Source of the DNA: an uncultured delta proteobacterium
Lineage (GTDB): Bacteria > Desulfobacterota > Desulfobacteria > Desulfobacterales > JAHEIW01
Reading direction: 5' to 3'
NCBI GenBank assembly: GCA_963706575.1
Contig: CAVPNL010000012.1
Span: 64,001 to 128,000 of the forward strand
DNA length: 64,000 nt
The notes under the pieces were generated by a model. The model saw only the letters and a list, made by a program, of their open reading frames with translations, ran no database searches and was not told where the DNA came from. Made by a program: the position numbers and the translations under genes. This document shows, in pieces, positions 14,668 through 38,563 of this stretch (positions are counted from its first letter, which is position 1; every line of letters starts with the position of its first letter).

Positions 14668-15324
14668 ATGCAAAATACCATTGAGATTTACTGGAAACAG
14701 AGGTTAGAAAAATGTAGAAATGCTTTAGAAAATAACAATTTTGATGCTTATCTCGCAGAAGATTCTCTCGAAGCCAATCAAATTATTATTAAAGAAATTA
14801 TTCCAAAAATAGATGTAAAAAGTGCTTCTTGGGGAGACTCTATGACGCTTCACTCAACTGGTGTTTTAAACGCACTTAGAAAAATTCCTGACATCCATGT
14901 CATCGAAACATTTGCGGGCGGTGTGCCTCGAGAAGAAATTCTGGAACGTCGCAGACAGGCTTTATTGGTTGATTTGTTTTTTAGCGGAAGCAATGCGCTT
15001 ACAGAAACTGGCAAGTTAGTGAACCTTGATATGGTTGGTAATCGTATTGCCGGTATTGTTTTTGGCCCACAACATGTCATCATTACTGTGGGTAGAAATA
15101 AAATCGTATCAGATGTTGAAGAAGCAATGAAACGTATCAAAAATTATGCTGCACCACTTAACGCTATCAGGCACACCGACTTTAAAACTCCATGTAAAAA
15201 AACTTCTTATTGTATGGATTGTAAAAGCCCTGACCGTATCTGTAACACTTGGACGATAACCGAAAAATCCTACCCAAAAGGCAGAATAAAGGTTCTTATC
15301 ATTAACAAAGATCTTGGATTGTAA
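14668..15324 (+). CDS. LUD-domain (lactate utilization LutC-like) protein
   Basis: GDSMTL, FFSGSNALTETGKLVNLD..GNR, GP, VGRNKIV, C..C..C..C tail. Confidence 0.85.
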   Translation: MQNTIEIYWKQRLEKCRNALENNNFDAYLAEDSLEANQIIIKEIIPKIDVKSASWGDSMTLHSTGVLNALRKIPDIHVIETFAGGVPREEILERRRQALLVDLFFSGSNALTETGKLVNLDMVGNRIAGIVFGPQHVIITVGRNKIVSDVEEAMKRIKNYAAPLNAIRHTDFKTPCKKTSYCMDCKSPDRICNTWTITEKSYPKGRIKVLIINKDLGL

Positions 15325-15335
15325 AAAGGGACCAT

Positions 15336-15481
15336 TACAACCCATCTCAAAAATGTCTTTTGGCCCCATATCTTTGTTGGTGCCTCGCTTTAAATCCTCA
15401 ACATACAACATTATGCTTCCGGTTTAAAACTCGGCCCCGCCGCGATATTGAACCAAAATCCTATTTTTGAAATGGGTTCTA
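15336..15481. mobile_element. 146-bp MITE-like element, copy 1
   Basis: Terminal inverted repeats TACAACCCATCTCAAAAAT / ATTTTTGAAATGGGTTCTA, TA ends, near-identical copy at 22313-22458, no transposase. Confidence 0.8.
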
Positions 15482-16178: not shown

Positions 16179-16586
16179 TTAACTTTTGTCTGTCGAACAG
16201 CAGCTTGACCCCGATGATTGGCCACAGCCTGAACCCGACGATTGGCTTCGGGTTAACTGCTTGAGCTCGCTGTCATAAATGGTCACCTTTGATAAAACAC
16301 GGGCGTTATTAAACCAGGCCCGATACTGATCTTGTTTGTCATAATCGCTGGCGGCCCCGCCGAGTACTTTTTCATTCAGATAGCTGTTGAGAAGCACCTG
16401 GTTTTCAGCAGCCGGTTCAACGGCTGTTTTTACGCTAGGTGTCGGGTTGGATTCAGTTGCGGCCGGATTTGAATTTGTGGCCTGAACTCGATTGTGCGTA
16501 AAAACAAAAATGCTTACGGCAATGAATGCCAGCAAGGGAAGTATGATAACGATTTTATTGGCAGCAATCCATTTAAACAATCTCAT
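16179..16586 (-). CDS. Hypothetical membrane-anchored protein with Cys-rich C-terminal tail
   Basis: GAGGAGG RBS; N-terminal TM helix, low-complexity linker, tail SGSGCGQSSGSSCCSTDKS. Confidence 0.7.
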   Translation of the reverse strand: MRLFKWIAANKIVIILPLLAFIAVSIFVFTHNRVQATNSNPAATESNPTPSVKTAVEPAAENQVLLNSYLNEKVLGGAASDYDKQDQYRAWFNNARVLSKVTIYDSELKQLTRSQSSGSGCGQSSGSSCCSTDKS

Positions 16587-17138
16587 TTCTTAAAACCTCC
16601 TCTTCAAAAACACATATGACAGTAAAATTGATATCATCTGTGCGATCAGGGCAAATGCAAATGTTGTATAGATAAGGAAAAAACCGGCAGGATCAAAATT
16701 GAGTGCTCCAAATTAGGTTCTGAGATTCTTGTAGATATTTATTTTATTATACCCTACTAAAATGGTCAAGTATAATATGCTAATTTGTGTCCGAAATTTG
16801 GGGTGAAATCAACAAAAATACCCCCACTTTTCGAAAAAAAATGGAGGGTTTTGATAATTCTACGGATGTCAAATTACAAAATGATGATTGAATTTATAAC
16901 CTTAGCGCTTAACGCGCTTGATGCGGTGGCAATTTATTTCATATGAATGTGCAACACATTACATATATCATTGAAATTATTAAAATTATTGACAAGGCCC
17001 GTATAAATTTTATATTGTTCTGGACTGAATTCCCCCAGAATTGCTGTCGCAGTCGCAACAACGATTCATAACCAAGTTCCCCAATCATTCAGATTTTCAT
17101 ACAACACAAGACCAGCGAGTGGAGATAGTTTATTAAAC

Positions 17139-17345
17139 ATGCACCACCCAAACACAAAAACAGTAGCCCGCCTGCCGCACAGAAAATTGCTATCAAAAAA
17201 TAATTCGCCCTTGAAACACCATGCAATAGATCGCCGCTCGGGAAAAGATCGGCGCAGATCGTGCGACACCAAGTATTTTCTAAACGGCGGAATTGAAAGA
17301 AGGAGTTGGAGGGAAAGAAGATTTTTATGGTATATGACGGAATAG
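17139..17345 (+). CDS. Small (D/E)RR-repeat arginine-rich protein
   Basis: DRRSGKDRR..YFLNGGIERRSWRERR; paralogous to 23759-23962; upstream TTGACA(16989)-16-TATATT and GGAG. Confidence 0.7.
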   Translation: MHHPNTKTVARLPHRKLLSKNNSPLKHHAIDRRSGKDRRRSCDTKYFLNGGIERRSWRERRFLWYMTE

Positions 17346-17380
17346 GCCAGTGTCTTTTTTGATGATTCTTGTAAAATCAA

Positions 17381-17575
17381 ATGAGAAAAATAAGAGAATT
17401 AAATAAACGCCTGAGATCTGACAAAAAACCGGTCGTGAACAAGCCGTCAGATACCGATTTTGTTGAAAGGCGTTCAGCGGCGGCCGATCGGCGCAAAATA
17501 CATACCTTCATTGCAAATGACAGACGCAGTGGAATTGCTGACAGACGCCAACAAAATCGTAAAATCAGACCTTAG
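17381..17575 (+). CDS. Small (D/E)RR-repeat arginine-rich protein
   Basis: ERRSAAADRR..DRRSGIADRR. Confidence 0.65.
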   Translation: MRKIRELNKRLRSDKKPVVNKPSDTDFVERRSAAADRRKIHTFIANDRRSGIADRRQQNRKIRP

Positions 17576-17826
17576 ACGCGCCCGGACGATATCATCTGCC
17601 GTTTAAGGATACCACTTCCTGTGATTTAATCCATCGTATCAGTTTAGTTATTTTTAACTACATCATTATTACTATAATACTTAAGTATTAAGCATATAGC
17701 ACTTTAGTATTATGAAACGCATACCACAGAATTAACGACTTCTTTCCATATATTCGAATCCCGTATATTCCGCAACTCTCTGTCTATCCTTCTGTATATA
17801 TTCAATATTCATTTGTCTTCACATTT

Positions 17827-17841
17827 TGGCATATGTCTTGC
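17827..17841 (+). promoter_or_regulatory. Sigma54 (-24/-12) promoter upstream of tandem PilZ gene
   Basis: TGGCATATGTCTTGC matches GG-N10-GC; AT-rich upstream region. Confidence 0.7.
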
Positions 17842-17974
17842 TCCTTTCACATTTATATTCTGATCTTTATCTTTTTTCATTTCAGATTAATCGAAATGAC
17901 TAGATGAATGACAGGATTGCATTCAATTGCGCAATCGTATTCTCTTCATGTCTTTACTCCAGAGGAGACGAGCA

Positions 17975-18646
17975 ATGACTCGATTTTATGAAAAAAGATC
18001 TGATAGTCGTACCGATTTTAAATCGCCCATTATGGTGGAAGATTCGAAAGGTATTATCTATAAAGCCCGAATGGTTAACTATAGTGGAAACGGCTTGTGC
18101 ATTGAAACGGATTGGTTATTGCGACCGGGAACCGAGATCTATATTGAGATGGAACAATCACCCTACGCATCCCATTCATTTGATCTGCCCGAACGATATC
18201 GGGCGGTGATATTATGGCATGCCAGATTGGAAAACTCCTTCTACAGTTATGGCTATGGGGTTAAATATACACCCGAGGTAGATACGCAGATCCCGCAAAT
18301 CAAAATATTGCAAGAAACAAAAATTAGTGAAGATTTGAGGCGGTATCCGAGGAAGCATTTTTCTAACTCGGTATTTTTCACTTCGCGAAATGGATACTTT
18401 GAAGGCCTGATCAACAACATCAGTAAGAATGGCGTCTTCATCAAAACGCAAGATGATTTTACTGTCGGACAGGTGGTCAGGATAGTCATTCCGGGCACAA
18501 AAATTGATAACGGTACGATGCTAAAAGGTGAAATTCGGCATCGAAGCAAAAAAGGAATCGGAATACAGTTTAAACAGCTATTGAAGGCCAAATTAGATTC
18601 TAACCAGCAAGTCCAAAAAAAATCCTCTTGTGTGGTAACGCGCTAA
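17975..18646 (+). CDS. Tandem PilZ-domain protein (c-di-GMP receptor)
   Basis: Two repeats of RxxxR (KRSDSR, RRYPR) plus NxSxxG (NYSGNG, NISKNG); AGGAG RBS before ATG 17975. Confidence 0.88.
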   Translation: MTRFYEKRSDSRTDFKSPIMVEDSKGIIYKARMVNYSGNGLCIETDWLLRPGTEIYIEMEQSPYASHSFDLPERYRAVILWHARLENSFYSYGYGVKYTPEVDTQIPQIKILQETKISEDLRRYPRKHFSNSVFFTSRNGYFEGLINNISKNGVFIKTQDDFTVGQVVRIVIPGTKIDNGTMLKGEIRHRSKKGIGIQFKQLLKAKLDSNQQVQKKSSCVVTR

Positions 18647-18686
18647 GATATGCATCCGCCAGAGTATATAGGGGGGCTCAGAGTAT

Positions 18687-19505
18687 ATGATGATGCGAAT
18701 TCTAAAGATTTTTTTATTTCTTTTCCTGCTTTCGGCACAGGTCGATGATGTTAATAGCGCCATATTCCAATTAGACCCCGATAATTTCAGTTCACGAGCT
18801 CATAACACCGGAATATATAGCTATGATTTCAGAGTTAATGTCATCGAGCATGACGGGATTCTGATGGATGCGGTTTCCGTCACCCCCCGCAGCACGCAAA
18901 GACCTTTCGTACCGTTTGACAATGGCGGCCATTTACTTTTCATTTCGAGAAATGTATTCCTGAATGTCACCAAAGGCATGATCGCAATGAACCTCCCGAC
19001 CGCTAAAGGAAGGTTGATCAGATTGATAGCCGGTGCCGGCAGTGATATTGAATTCGAACCGGATTCCTTTACAATCACTTCCTCTGTTTCTAACCCCAAT
19101 GCAGTAAAAGCGATCCTTGAGGGTATCGAGTTTATCATCCGGCCGGGTGAAACGACCCGCTTTATTGAAACGAATATTATCCCGGCAAGTGTAAATGTTG
19201 CTTTTAACCAAAACACAGGGGGATTAATTTCGGTTGCCATATTCGGCAGCGCTTACCTGGACGTAAATCAGATTAAAATTAACAGCCTGTTGCTCGAAAG
19301 CCCTGTCTTAAAGCAGAATGCAAAATCCGAGCGTCCCGCGACCATCGCTCACCTTAATGATGATTCATATCCGGACCTGATGGTTGAGTTTGAAGCAAAT
19401 AAAGGCCCCTCCAACGACAATTTCAGCCATGCCATACTACTTAAAGGCCGATTGTCCGACGGCACCATAATCAAAAGCATATCCGCAATGGACTTCATAT
19501 TTTAA
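18687..19505 (+). CDS. Hypothetical secreted protein
   Basis: N-terminal signal-like segment; C-terminal part with HLNDDSYPDL (possible Ca-binding-like loop). Confidence 0.7.
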   Translation: MMMRILKIFLFLFLLSAQVDDVNSAIFQLDPDNFSSRAHNTGIYSYDFRVNVIEHDGILMDAVSVTPRSTQRPFVPFDNGGHLLFISRNVFLNVTKGMIAMNLPTAKGRLIRLIAGAGSDIEFEPDSFTITSSVSNPNAVKAILEGIEFIIRPGETTRFIETNIIPASVNVAFNQNTGGLISVAIFGSAYLDVNQIKINSLLLESPVLKQNAKSERPATIAHLNDDSYPDLMVEFEANKGPSNDNFSHAILLKGRLSDGTIIKSISAMDFIF

Positions 19506-22062: not shown

Positions 22063-22312
22063 TTTGAGGCAATGAGTACGAATCGTAACGCTTGTTAAAG
22101 CCGGAATGGAGAAGTGACCCTTTAAATGTATCCTGTTTTATCTAAGTCGTTGTCAAAATCGAAATTTGTTCAATTAATCCTATCAGAGCGCTTATGTCAA
22201 TCCCCATCAAAATCGACCGACAAGGACCCCGCAAGATCGAGACAAAGACGCGCAAAATCAATCCCGCTTTTGTCCGGATCTGACAATCTGCCATGCTATG
22301 CTCTAAACAATA

Positions 22313-22458
22313 TAGAATCCATCTCAAAAATGTCTTTTGGCCCAATATCTTTGTTGGAGCCTCGCTTCAAATCCTCGACATACAACAGTATGCCTCCGGT
22401 TTGAAGCTCGGCCCCGCCGCGATCTTGAACCAAAATCCTATTTTTGAGATGGGTTCTA
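22313..22458. mobile_element. 146-bp MITE-like element, copy 2
   Basis: TAGAATCCATCTCAAAAAT...ATTTTTGAGATGGGTTCTA; same length and sequence family as 15336-15481. Confidence 0.8.
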
Positions 22459-22486
22459 AACCCATGGATTTTAGAAAGGAAAAAAA

Positions 22487-23017
22487 ATGATGCCTGGCAG
22501 TAATGTGGATTCAACCAACGCCGTATTCAAACTCAAAAATACCATCTGGGCATTTCCCTACCTTGCGGTGATGGGACTGATCTGGGGCTATCTGGCGGGC
22601 GCGTCTTCAGGTGCAATCGTCGGCCTGGCGGCCGCCGTGGCGATCTGCGTATTGATCGGTTCGGCAACACCCATCTTTAACGGACCGCGGGGCGGCAGCG
22701 CCGTTAGCACCCGTTCCAAACCGCCAAGAAACAACATGATTGTACGGAAACAGCTGGCTTCAGATCTGAATGCCGTGCGCTACCACAAACTATGTCATCA
22801 ATTCGATGATGCCCTGTTAAAAATCGAGGAAGTCCTCGCCAAAGATCCTGATTTTGTCGAAGCCTTGCTTTTAAAAGCCCAGATTCTGTGGGAGGGATTT
22901 GAGGACTGTCAAGCGGCCAGAGCCTGCCTGTTAACAATTTTAGCGGTAGTACCTGATGAAAAGGATGTGTTTCACAGCTGGGCGCTGAATATGTATAAAG
23001 AACTGTATCAGAAATAG
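22487..23017 (+). CDS. Membrane protein with C-terminal TPR-like region
   Basis: Two hydrophobic segments then AL..IEEVLAKDPDFVEALLLKAQIL. Confidence 0.75.
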   Translation: MMPGSNVDSTNAVFKLKNTIWAFPYLAVMGLIWGYLAGASSGAIVGLAAAVAICVLIGSATPIFNGPRGGSAVSTRSKPPRNNMIVRKQLASDLNAVRYHKLCHQFDDALLKIEEVLAKDPDFVEALLLKAQILWEGFEDCQAARACLLTILAVVPDEKDVFHSWALNMYKELYQK

Positions 23018-23758: not shown

Positions 23759-23962
23759 TCAATTAGAATCCGGACAAACGCTGGACCAATCGCTGACCCG
23801 GACGCAGCTATCCCGCCGTTCGTCCTTTTGCCTGCGATCCCCGCCGTGCCTTCTTTCCACGCCGCTGTTTTCAAAATAATCCGAGTCATAGACAGCCCGT
23901 CTGTCTTCTCCGGATCGGCGATCCATATAAGGGTCTCTTACTCTTGCATTTTGCGAAGTCAT
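23759..23962 (-). CDS. Small (D/E)RR-repeat arginine-rich protein
   Basis: GAGGAGG RBS; DRRSGEDRR..YFENSGVERRHGGDRR..DERR. Confidence 0.78.
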   Translation of the reverse strand: MTSQNARVRDPYMDRRSGEDRRAVYDSDYFENSGVERRHGGDRRQKDERRDSCVRVSDWSSVCPDSN

Positions 23963-24147: not shown

Positions 24148-24600
24148 TTGATGTTTCTCTGGAAATATATGACCATTATTTTTGCTTTCGGGGCGCTCGG
24201 CGGAGTTGTCAATGCGCTGCTGACGGACAATGGGTTTATTCTTCCTAAAAAGGAGCGGCAGGATAACACCAGAATTATTCGTCCCGGGTTTTTAGTGAAT
24301 ATTTTTATTGGCGGAATTGCCGCTCTGGTTTCCTGGGGCTTATACGGGCCGTTTGCAGCGGTCTTTATTATCGGCGGAACCAATGATCCCGGCGTCGGCA
24401 GCACCGGACTCAGCCTGTCTTCTGTGATCGGCGGATTGCTTGTCGGCGTCGGCGGAGCGCGCTGGTTGACAAATGAAGTCGACAAGAAATTACTGCGCGC
24501 AGCTGCCAGCAAGGCGGCTTCCGGCCAGCCCAGCGATCAAAAAGCGATTCGAATATCAGCCGCCCCTCCGGCAGAGGCATTAAGAATCGCAGCAGAGTAA
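24148..24600 (+). CDS. Hypothetical membrane protein (DUF4257-like)
   Basis: GGAGG RBS; GALGGVVNAL, three Gly-rich TM segments. Confidence 0.75.
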   Translation: MMFLWKYMTIIFAFGALGGVVNALLTDNGFILPKKERQDNTRIIRPGFLVNIFIGGIAALVSWGLYGPFAAVFIIGGTNDPGVGSTGLSLSSVIGGLLVGVGGARWLTNEVDKKLLRAAASKAASGQPSDQKAIRISAAPPAEALRIAAE

Positions 24601-37048: not shown

Positions 37049-37249
37049 TTAAACGGGTTTTACATTTACAGCATGCGCGCCTTTGGGCCCCTCTTCAATG
37101 TCAAACGTAACCTGATCGCCTTCGTTGAGAGACCTGAATCCTTCTGAATCGATTCCGGTGTGATGTACGAAAACATCCGGACCATCCTCTTGCTCAATAA
37201 AACCATAACCCTTACGATCGTTGAACCATTTCACAACACCATTTGCCAC
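37049..37249 (-). CDS. csp: Cold-shock domain protein
   Basis: GTG start; [20 protein letters not shown]. Confidence 0.96.
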
Positions 37250-37851: not shown

Positions 37852-38040
37852 ATGAATGAACCGCGTCGCCCCAAGAACGATCAGCATTCAAAACGGCCCC
37901 AAAAATTTTCCCGGGATCATAAATCGGAAAGAAGAAATGGCCGTGATCGCAGAAAAGGGGTTGATCGCAGGAGCGGATTCGACCGCAGGCGGAGCCAGGA
38001 CCGCGAGGCGACGGAACGTAAAAACCTGACCCGGGAGTGA
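37852..38040 (+). CDS. Small (D/E)RR-repeat arginine-rich protein
   Basis: ERRNGR-DRRKGV-DRRSGF-DRRRSQ-DR, 6-aa period; start set to ATG 37852 (weak RBS). Confidence 0.65.
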   Translation: MNEPRRPKNDQHSKRPQKFSRDHKSERRNGRDRRKGVDRRSGFDRRRSQDREATERKNLTRE

Positions 38041-38122
38041 GACTCAAACATGAAACACACGGATTTTAAATCAAACATTAACAAAAATTATTTAGAACCC
38101 ATCTCAAACAGAAAGGAATAAA

Positions 38123-38563
38123 ATGGTTCAACATATTATCGCCGGCAATCCGATCGAGAACAAATATCAGCACTTAAGAAAAATCGATAACCACCTGAGG
38201 GCTGAAATAAAAATAAGCAGAGACGGCCTTGGATACCAGTTTAAGCTGAGGGAAATCGATGCCGATCAAGGGTGTTTTTTTATCAGCGAAAACTCCGCGA
38301 TCTTAAAAATTCTGGATAGCGGCTCGATTCTGGACATGAAATATTGGACGGCTGACAAAACCAGAACGGTCAAATATGTCACAGCGAAAATAAATGGTAT
38401 TGCCAAACAAAGCCATGAGCCGTTTAAGGGACATTATAAGGTCGGATTATCCATTTTGAAGACGAAAGGCTTGAAACTGGTGAATCCAGTCGCTGGGTTG
38501 TTAAAAACACGGATCGAAGCCGAAGGTCTGGGCAAAGCACAATCAGCGCAGCACGGTCTTTGA
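38123..38563 (+). CDS. PilZ-like beta-barrel protein with degenerate c-di-GMP motifs
   Basis: AAGGA RBS; YQFKL..I....GCFF..S.IL..L..G..LDMKY..FKGHY.VGLSI resembles deltaproteobacterial PilZ-like proteins; RxxxR and D/NxSxxG not conserved. Confidence 0.5.
   Translation: MVQHIIAGNPIENKYQHLRKIDNHLRAEIKISRDGLGYQFKLREIDADQGCFFISENSAILKILDSGSILDMKYWTADKTRTVKYVTAKINGIAKQSHEPFKGHYKVGLSILKTKGLKLVNPVAGLLKTRIEAEGLGKAQSAQHGL

Follow-up and report, generated by a model that had tools for sequence, protein, structure and literature searches.

Four short open reading frames in the window (the whole 64,000-nucleotide stretch analysed here) are conserved predicted genes belonging to a multi-copy family of microproteins built from (D/E)RR repeats, whose abundance in genomes follows that of PilZ genes. 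The reading that we prefer, to which we give a probability of about one half, is that these are disordered peptides that would bind c-di-GMP and fold on the ligand, and that they are likely to act as adaptors more than as pure sinks.

Four small genes and their repeat family

An earlier note had picked out the four frames as encoding 62–68 aa proteins with (D/E)RR units, and its positions and sizes proved right: the proteins have 68, 64, 67 and 62 aa, with four, four, five and four units. They lie among the following features of the window.

16989..17016, + strand: sigma-70-like promoter, 11 of 12 consensus matches (the number of such sites is not above chance)
17139..17345, + strand: DRR microprotein 1, 68 aa, four (D/E)RR units spaced 6-16-6, conserved aromatic C-terminal tail
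17381..17575, + strand: DRR microprotein 2, 64 aa, four units spaced 7-11-7, second-to-fourth Asp span of 18
17827..17842, + strand: sigma-54-like site (pattern match only), ahead of the double-PilZ gene
17975..18646, + strand: double-PilZ protein, Pfam PF07238 at E 2.7e-24 in two stretches, domains at 17990-18280 and 18335-18580
23759..23962, - strand: DRR microprotein 3, 67 aa, five units spaced 6-16-6-6, net charge 0, conserved Cys/Trp C-terminal tail
37852..38040, + strand: DRR microprotein 4, 62 aa counted from the ATG, four units spaced 6-6-6 (an exact six-residue register)
38123..38563, + strand: degenerate PilZ-like protein, with PilZ homology and a predicted barrel, lacking both c-di-GMP motifs

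Genome-wide, the paired (D/E)RR pattern is in modest excess over chance (29 occurrences, against 17 when the DNA is reversed and 7-13 when it is shuffled); arrays of three units are far above it (18, one of them in an unrelated repeat protein, vs none in reversed DNA and 0, 1 and 1 in shuffled DNA). Full-length orthologues of 17139, at 53-91% identity, are present in 15 of the 21 other genomes of the genus, matches to 17381 in 12 of these 21, and a full-length search with 23759 gave 124 homologues. The median pairwise dN/dS is 0.28 for 17139, 0.27 for 17381 and 0.19 for 23759, with dS near 1 (sets of 14, 9 and 10 sequences respectively, saturated pairs excluded and 37852 outside the set); judged from these alignments, the three genes are under purifying selection. 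For all four, the coding frame is the sole frame open in every orthologue (14 of 14 in the case of 17139). The ribosome-binding site is strong ahead of 23759, and a GGAG conserved in orthologues lies 14 nt before the ATG of 17139; there is no clear site ahead of 17381 or 37852. A TTGACA hexamer occurs at about the same distance in 11 of 14 upstream regions of 17139 orthologues. Low-depth metatranscriptome contigs from four runs map to parts of 16500-19500, but they span intergenic DNA too, and so do not demonstrate transcription of the region. A twin-arginine export signal was ruled out by inspection, there being no hydrophobic segment after the Arg pairs.

A profile built from 18 paralogue cores of the source genome (E<=0.01, one iteration) found 19 ORFs in that genome and none in a reversed-protein control. 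Fifteen of the 19 stand alone and four are fusions, in which the partner is PilZ in one, HTH_17 in another, and in the other two a Cys-rich N-terminus and an uncharacterized C-terminal region respectively; one weaker paralogue precedes DUF5658. All 18 congeners scanned have between 4 and 22 copies; of 121 genomes from the order, 62 contain at least one copy, as do 13 of 250 others sampled from the phylum, and the family comprises 1512 clusters at 50% identity. Its expected invisibility to standard annotation was borne out: Pfam and NCBIfam hold no model for the repeat across the 19 paralogues, none of the four window ORFs has one in Pfam, and their close homologues are labelled 'hypothetical protein', Desulfobacterales. 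A PDB sequence search with the profile and two single members gave no meaningful match, and no solved c-di-GMP peptide among the matches. In the ESM Atlas, 23759 retrieved three unnamed hypothetical clusters at 0.90, and a second member no usable named match; a single query of viral contigs did not find the family, nor was a description of it found in literature that excludes most subscription papers. There were no Rfam riboswitches in the window or at 14 paralogue loci, and sigma-54 control of the family is unsupported (2 of 21 members have a site, against a background of 4-5%).

Among 245 homologues, which have 3-11 units each, the commonest spacings between units are 6 (821 times) and 12 (289 times), followed by 14, 18, 13 and 16. 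The grammar is thus a six-residue (D/E)RR-S-G-x repeat, broken at one place by an aromatic linker. Ten Arg columns of the 23759 set contain 4 Lys among 1270 cells, and other basic columns mix freely; the mean net charge of this family is +0.5. Each subfamily has its own conserved tail. An AlphaFold2 model of 23759 (127 alignment rows) has pLDDT 66.6, pTM 0.25, a single 4-residue helix and no defined fold, which is consistent with disorder in the unbound state.

Several family members outside the window combine the repeat with other segments. Two in the source genome (G000) are candidate ligand-gated regulators, one with an excisionase-type HTH_17 domain (G000:C9:62462-62752) and the other with the Cys-rich N-terminus (G000:C8:356228-356542). 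Candidate membrane-anchored forms, with a C-terminal hydrophobic segment after the repeat, are found at L060:154-633 and L064:1834-2214, and in P0206 the repeat is followed by a membrane segment and by an sCache domain.

Resemblance to CleD and to the PilZ switch loop

In Hee et al. (PMC7382256), the c-di-GMP-binding motif is given as DRR-x11-(R/K)RxxD and the ligand contacts of CleD as D154, R155, R156, Y163, R168, R169 and D172; the R169A change abolishes binding, and each single loop deletion weakens it 2- to 11-fold. The Cle motif is a tandem [YF]xGP[DE][RK]R according to Nesper et al. (PMC5677366), which lists 302 ARR homologues, 294 of them alphaproteobacterial and 5% of the 302 without known domains.

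The protein encoded by 37852 matches DRR-x11-(R/K)RxxD exactly, as do 8 of 12 orthologues (the triple Arg is invariant in all 12; the final residue of the motif is Asp in 8 and Asn in 4), with no aromatic at +9. As the six-residue repeat alone places an Asp at +18, this match is partly built in. The exact motif is present in 6 of the 245 homologues and absent from 17139, 17381 and 23759. In the main subfamily, 168 of 217 cores have an Asp-to-Asp span of 18, like that from D154 to D172 of CleD, with Phe at +4 (CleD F158), His or Tyr at +9 (CleD Y163) and Arg at +13 and +14, and an ungapped comparison gives a counterpart for six of the seven ligand-contact residues; the departures are Ser (75%) at +15, in the place of R169, and Pro at that of G165. 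The span of 18 is kept in 17381 with the register shifted, and 17139 and 23759 keep Tyr at +9 with a linker four residues longer. The motif [YF]xGP[DE][RK]R occurs in none of the four window ORFs and at least once in 5 of the 245 homologues; one paralogue elsewhere in the source genome has a single exact copy.

Thus, the features that define Cle proteins (the receiver and the tandem YxGP) are mostly missing, and by defining motifs the family would lie outside Cle/ARR, although the chemistry could work alike. Cle/ARR sequences share with the family short tandem Asp-Arg-Arg motifs, an aromatic linker, predicted disorder and portability onto other domains. They differ in that the Cle proteins of Caulobacter have an N-terminal CheY-like receiver domain, of which there is none among the 19 paralogues, whereas family members are mostly stand-alone genes of about 50-130 aa, with up to 22 per genome. 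Their six-residue repeat runs to as many as 11 units, the R169 place is taken by Ser, and YxGP is absent in most cases; and the family belongs to Desulfobacterales, whereas the ARR homologues published in PMC5677366 are mostly alphaproteobacterial. Cle peptides are unfolded until they bind, and hold a c-di-GMP dimer with nanomolar Kd.

There is also a likeness to the N-terminal RxxxR switch loop of PilZ domains (PF07238), the family's partners in genomes and in fusions, which often starts with (D/E)RR and reads guanine through Arg. Unlike PilZ, the microproteins combine a register of 6 or 12 residues, instead of RxxxR, with no (D/N)xSxxG and no six-stranded beta-barrel, as judged by Pfam, motif and model.

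Association with PilZ genes

The source genome has 37 PilZ genes, vs 7 strong GGDEF, 1 EAL and 7 HD-GYP genes, an excess of receptors typical of the genus. Across 121 genomes, microprotein copies per Mb are correlated with PilZ genes per Mb (rho 0.63; 0.62 over 75 families and 0.61 without the source family), figures to be read with the provisos that kin genomes are not independent, that the profile favours near relatives, and that, as it was made from the source genome, shared ancestry may inflate the correlation. The corresponding rho is 0.01 with GGDEF (with candidates capped at 27) and 0.13 with genome size. All six genomes without PilZ lack the family; exceptions to the trend are 6 of the 25 genomes with at least 15 PilZ genes that have no copy, and 4 of the 22 with three or fewer that have one.

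Physical proximity is real but partial. In the source genome, 6 of 17 hand-listed loci have one of the 37 PilZ genes within 2.5 kb, where 0.85 would be expected for size-matched genes and 1.54 for size- and GC-matched genes (p<=0.0013; GC-matched p 0.001). This list contains two weak members, of which one belongs to the six; it excludes the PilZ fusion and does not score 38123 as PilZ. Such proximity was seen for 11 of 62 loci in five relatives (fusions and one weak match included), against 1.73 expected, and for 4 of 28 in five further genomes, against 0.56; of these 28, the 11 loci from the two best-assembled distant genomes all fell outside. Proximity is therefore about 4-7 times above expectation, yet limited to 14-35% of loci. 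No GGDEF, EAL or HD-GYP gene is found within 5 kb of any of the 17 source-genome loci. The predicted enrichment near c-di-GMP genes thus extends to PilZ, in both density and proximity, and not to the enzymes of c-di-GMP turnover; the suggestion that the microproteins tune nearby PilZ effectors could apply only to a minority, as 11 of the 17 loci, and 24 of the 28 in the five further genomes, lack a Pfam-type PilZ gene within 2.5 kb. Of 20 loci from beyond the order, one has its copy directly adjoining an MshEN ATPase gene, a second is close to two PilZ genes and at a third the copy forms part of a cNMP-binding protein, but most have no c-di-GMP gene.

Fusions of the repeat to PilZ take three forms, with a canonical PilZ, a pentapeptide-PilZ and a 38123-type PilZ domain, and of the four proteins longer than 150 aa in the set of the 150 best representatives, three contain PilZ. 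The family proposed in the earlier note has turned out to be real, unannotated, multi-copy and linked to PilZ both statistically and through fusions.

The two PilZ-associated loci of the window differ in tightness. At the first, the double-PilZ gene, both of whose domains carry RxxxR and (D/N)xSxxG, begins 399 bp past 17381, and its sigma-54-like site suggests that it may be separately transcribed. The genes 17139 and 17381 form a stable pair, adjoining in 9 of 16 loci. The tandem pair upstream of a double-PilZ gene is indeed the arrangement seen here, but this gene adjoins 17139 in just 5 of the 15 orthologous loci with enough flank and is missing in the other 10, so that the three genes are not a fixed module. 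Similar intergenic stretches at 15109-15411 and 22296-22514 of the window, with near-identical short shadow ORFs, suggest a small repeated element.

The association of 37852 with 38123 is tighter: a DRR ORF lies directly upstream of 38123 in 12 of 17 orthologous loci, including the window (one of the five misses has no upstream sequence), and the adjacency to a PilZ-like gene that had been noticed here thus recurs at most of these loci. Although 38123 has no Pfam match, it shares 40% identity across 91 residues with a relative whose own PilZ score is borderline, and its model (pTM 0.63) has MotI, Alg44 and MrkH among its top Foldseek rows (E about 2e-3, probability 1.0), mixed with flavin-binding barrels; on predicted structure and homology it is a PilZ-type barrel. 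Both RxxxR and (D/N)xSxxG are replaced in all 17 aligned orthologues, and more distant paralogues keep both motifs and bear the repeat as a tail. A predicted complex of 38123, 37852 and two c-di-GMP molecules scored 0.02, giving no answer either way. A sigma-54-like site before 37852 was discarded, being absent from orthologues. In two congeners (L088:2026-2235 and L089:2047-2277), a further DRR ORF, ending in a Trp-Ser-Ser-Val tail, lies between the orthologues of 37852 and 38123, and in the window a cold-shock protein gene (37049-37249, - strand) is divergent from the pair. The remaining microprotein gene, 23759, is 5.1 kb from the nearest PilZ gene; divergent from it is a gene for a three-helix membrane protein (24148-24600, + strand) with weak DUF4257/YLATT scores, and at least two congeners share this neighbourhood.

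At least eight c-di-GMP-I riboswitches (from the scoring of 150 of 647 candidates) were found in the source genome.

c-di-GMP-I riboswitches, G000: C18:11050, C18:184997, C3:507424, C9:43569, C4:354681, C4:289042, C4:311824, C22:43990

They precede genes resembling pilin-type, surface and peptidase genes, and one is separated by a 254-aa gene from a DRR paralogue 2 kb downstream.

What the repeats may bind

In the reading that we prefer, Arg/Asp hexad-repeat microproteins, expanded together with PilZ genes, would be disordered when free and would fold around an intercalated c-di-GMP dimer, as the CleD peptide of Caulobacter does. Asp and Arg pairs would read guanine edges, and arrays with more units could accommodate more than one dimer. 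That Arg is in effect never exchanged for Lys, and that the 23759 family is neutral, fits guanidinium-specific recognition. Sensor or adaptor modules seem favoured over a plain sink by the way in which copy number follows receptors and not cyclases, by the conservation of subfamily tails and by the grafting of the repeat onto output domains. More speculatively, subfamilies with conserved tails (the 17139, 17381 and 23759 types) might be ligand-gated adaptors towards partners; the same module might have been grafted onto DNA-binding, membrane and PilZ proteins; and pure hexad arrays such as 37852 might buffer c-di-GMP or lend arginines to a PilZ barrel without its own. The fuller proposal, that these are genome-encoded stand-alone disordered peptides holding several c-di-GMP dimers each, serving both as sponges and as ligand-folded adaptors, with 37852-38123 a split receptor whose arginines are supplied by the peptide, we regard as possible but doubtful. 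The phage proteins Tad1 and Acb2 are sponges for cyclic nucleotides, folded oligomers directed against immune signals. Family members would resemble them as small proteins lowering the free level of a second messenger by binding it, but are chromosomal and predicted to be disordered.

The repeats might instead bind proteins, docking on PilZ barrels or on the targets of these barrels through a likeness to the (D/E)RR with which the switch loop begins, and hold no c-di-GMP alone. The dependence of copy number on PilZ and not GGDEF, the repeat-PilZ fusions and the position of 37852 beside a motif-less barrel would all accord with this, as would the fact that 19 of 40 PilZ domains in the source genome start with [DE][RK]RxxxR; but 38 of the 40 retain both their own motifs, most copies of the repeat are distant from PilZ, its spacing differs from RxxxR, and it is also fused to non-PilZ domains. 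We consider docking improbable, though the least so of the alternatives. Slightly less probable is that these are small basic proteins binding nucleic acids or ribosomes, their link with PilZ arising from shared AT-rich regulatory islands and ancestry. A net charge of +12 or +13 in three of the four window proteins, the paralogue with an HTH_17 domain and the lower-GC context of both DRR and PilZ genes (0.45 vs 0.48) would suit such a role, which is hard to reconcile with the intolerance of Lys, the retention of Asp or Glu before each Arg pair and the neutrality of the 23759 family; and proximity to PilZ holds against the GC-matched control (6 vs 1.54).

It seems unlikely that the ligand is another guanine nucleotide, most plausibly 3',3'-cGAMP or (p)ppGpp, with the change at the R169 position altering base preference. 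The main subfamily does differ from CleD at that one guanine contact, and a GGDEF protein of the source genome (G000:C4:336597-337070, - strand) has at its specificity position the Ser that marks cGAMP-making enzymes (PMC9140294). Against this, six of the seven GGDEF proteins retain Asp, the CleD peptide bound none of the other nucleotides tried (PMC7382256), and the genomic link of the family goes to PilZ. The gene for this candidate 3',3'-cGAMP synthase is about 1 kb from a PilZ gene (C4:338088). Finally, that the ORFs are chance or shadow frames without protein function, for which the lack of a clear ribosome-binding site ahead of 17381 and 37852 and the frequency of a single paired pattern by chance might be invoked, is largely refuted by dN/dS ratios well below 1, the uniquely open coding frame and the size of the family, and is scarcely credible.

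If the repeats do not bind c-di-GMP, they would still constitute a large undescribed microprotein family, co-expanded with PilZ, in abundant sediment relatives of sulfate reducers. If they do, they would represent a class of c-di-GMP receptors invisible to domain annotation, with some 19 members in this genome in addition to its 37 PilZ genes, vs 7 cyclases. The engineered peptide that sequesters c-di-GMP would then have natural stand-alone counterparts, synthetic 20-60-mers would offer a cheap test of the buffering of free c-di-GMP, and the family would provide a library of natural variants for sensors.
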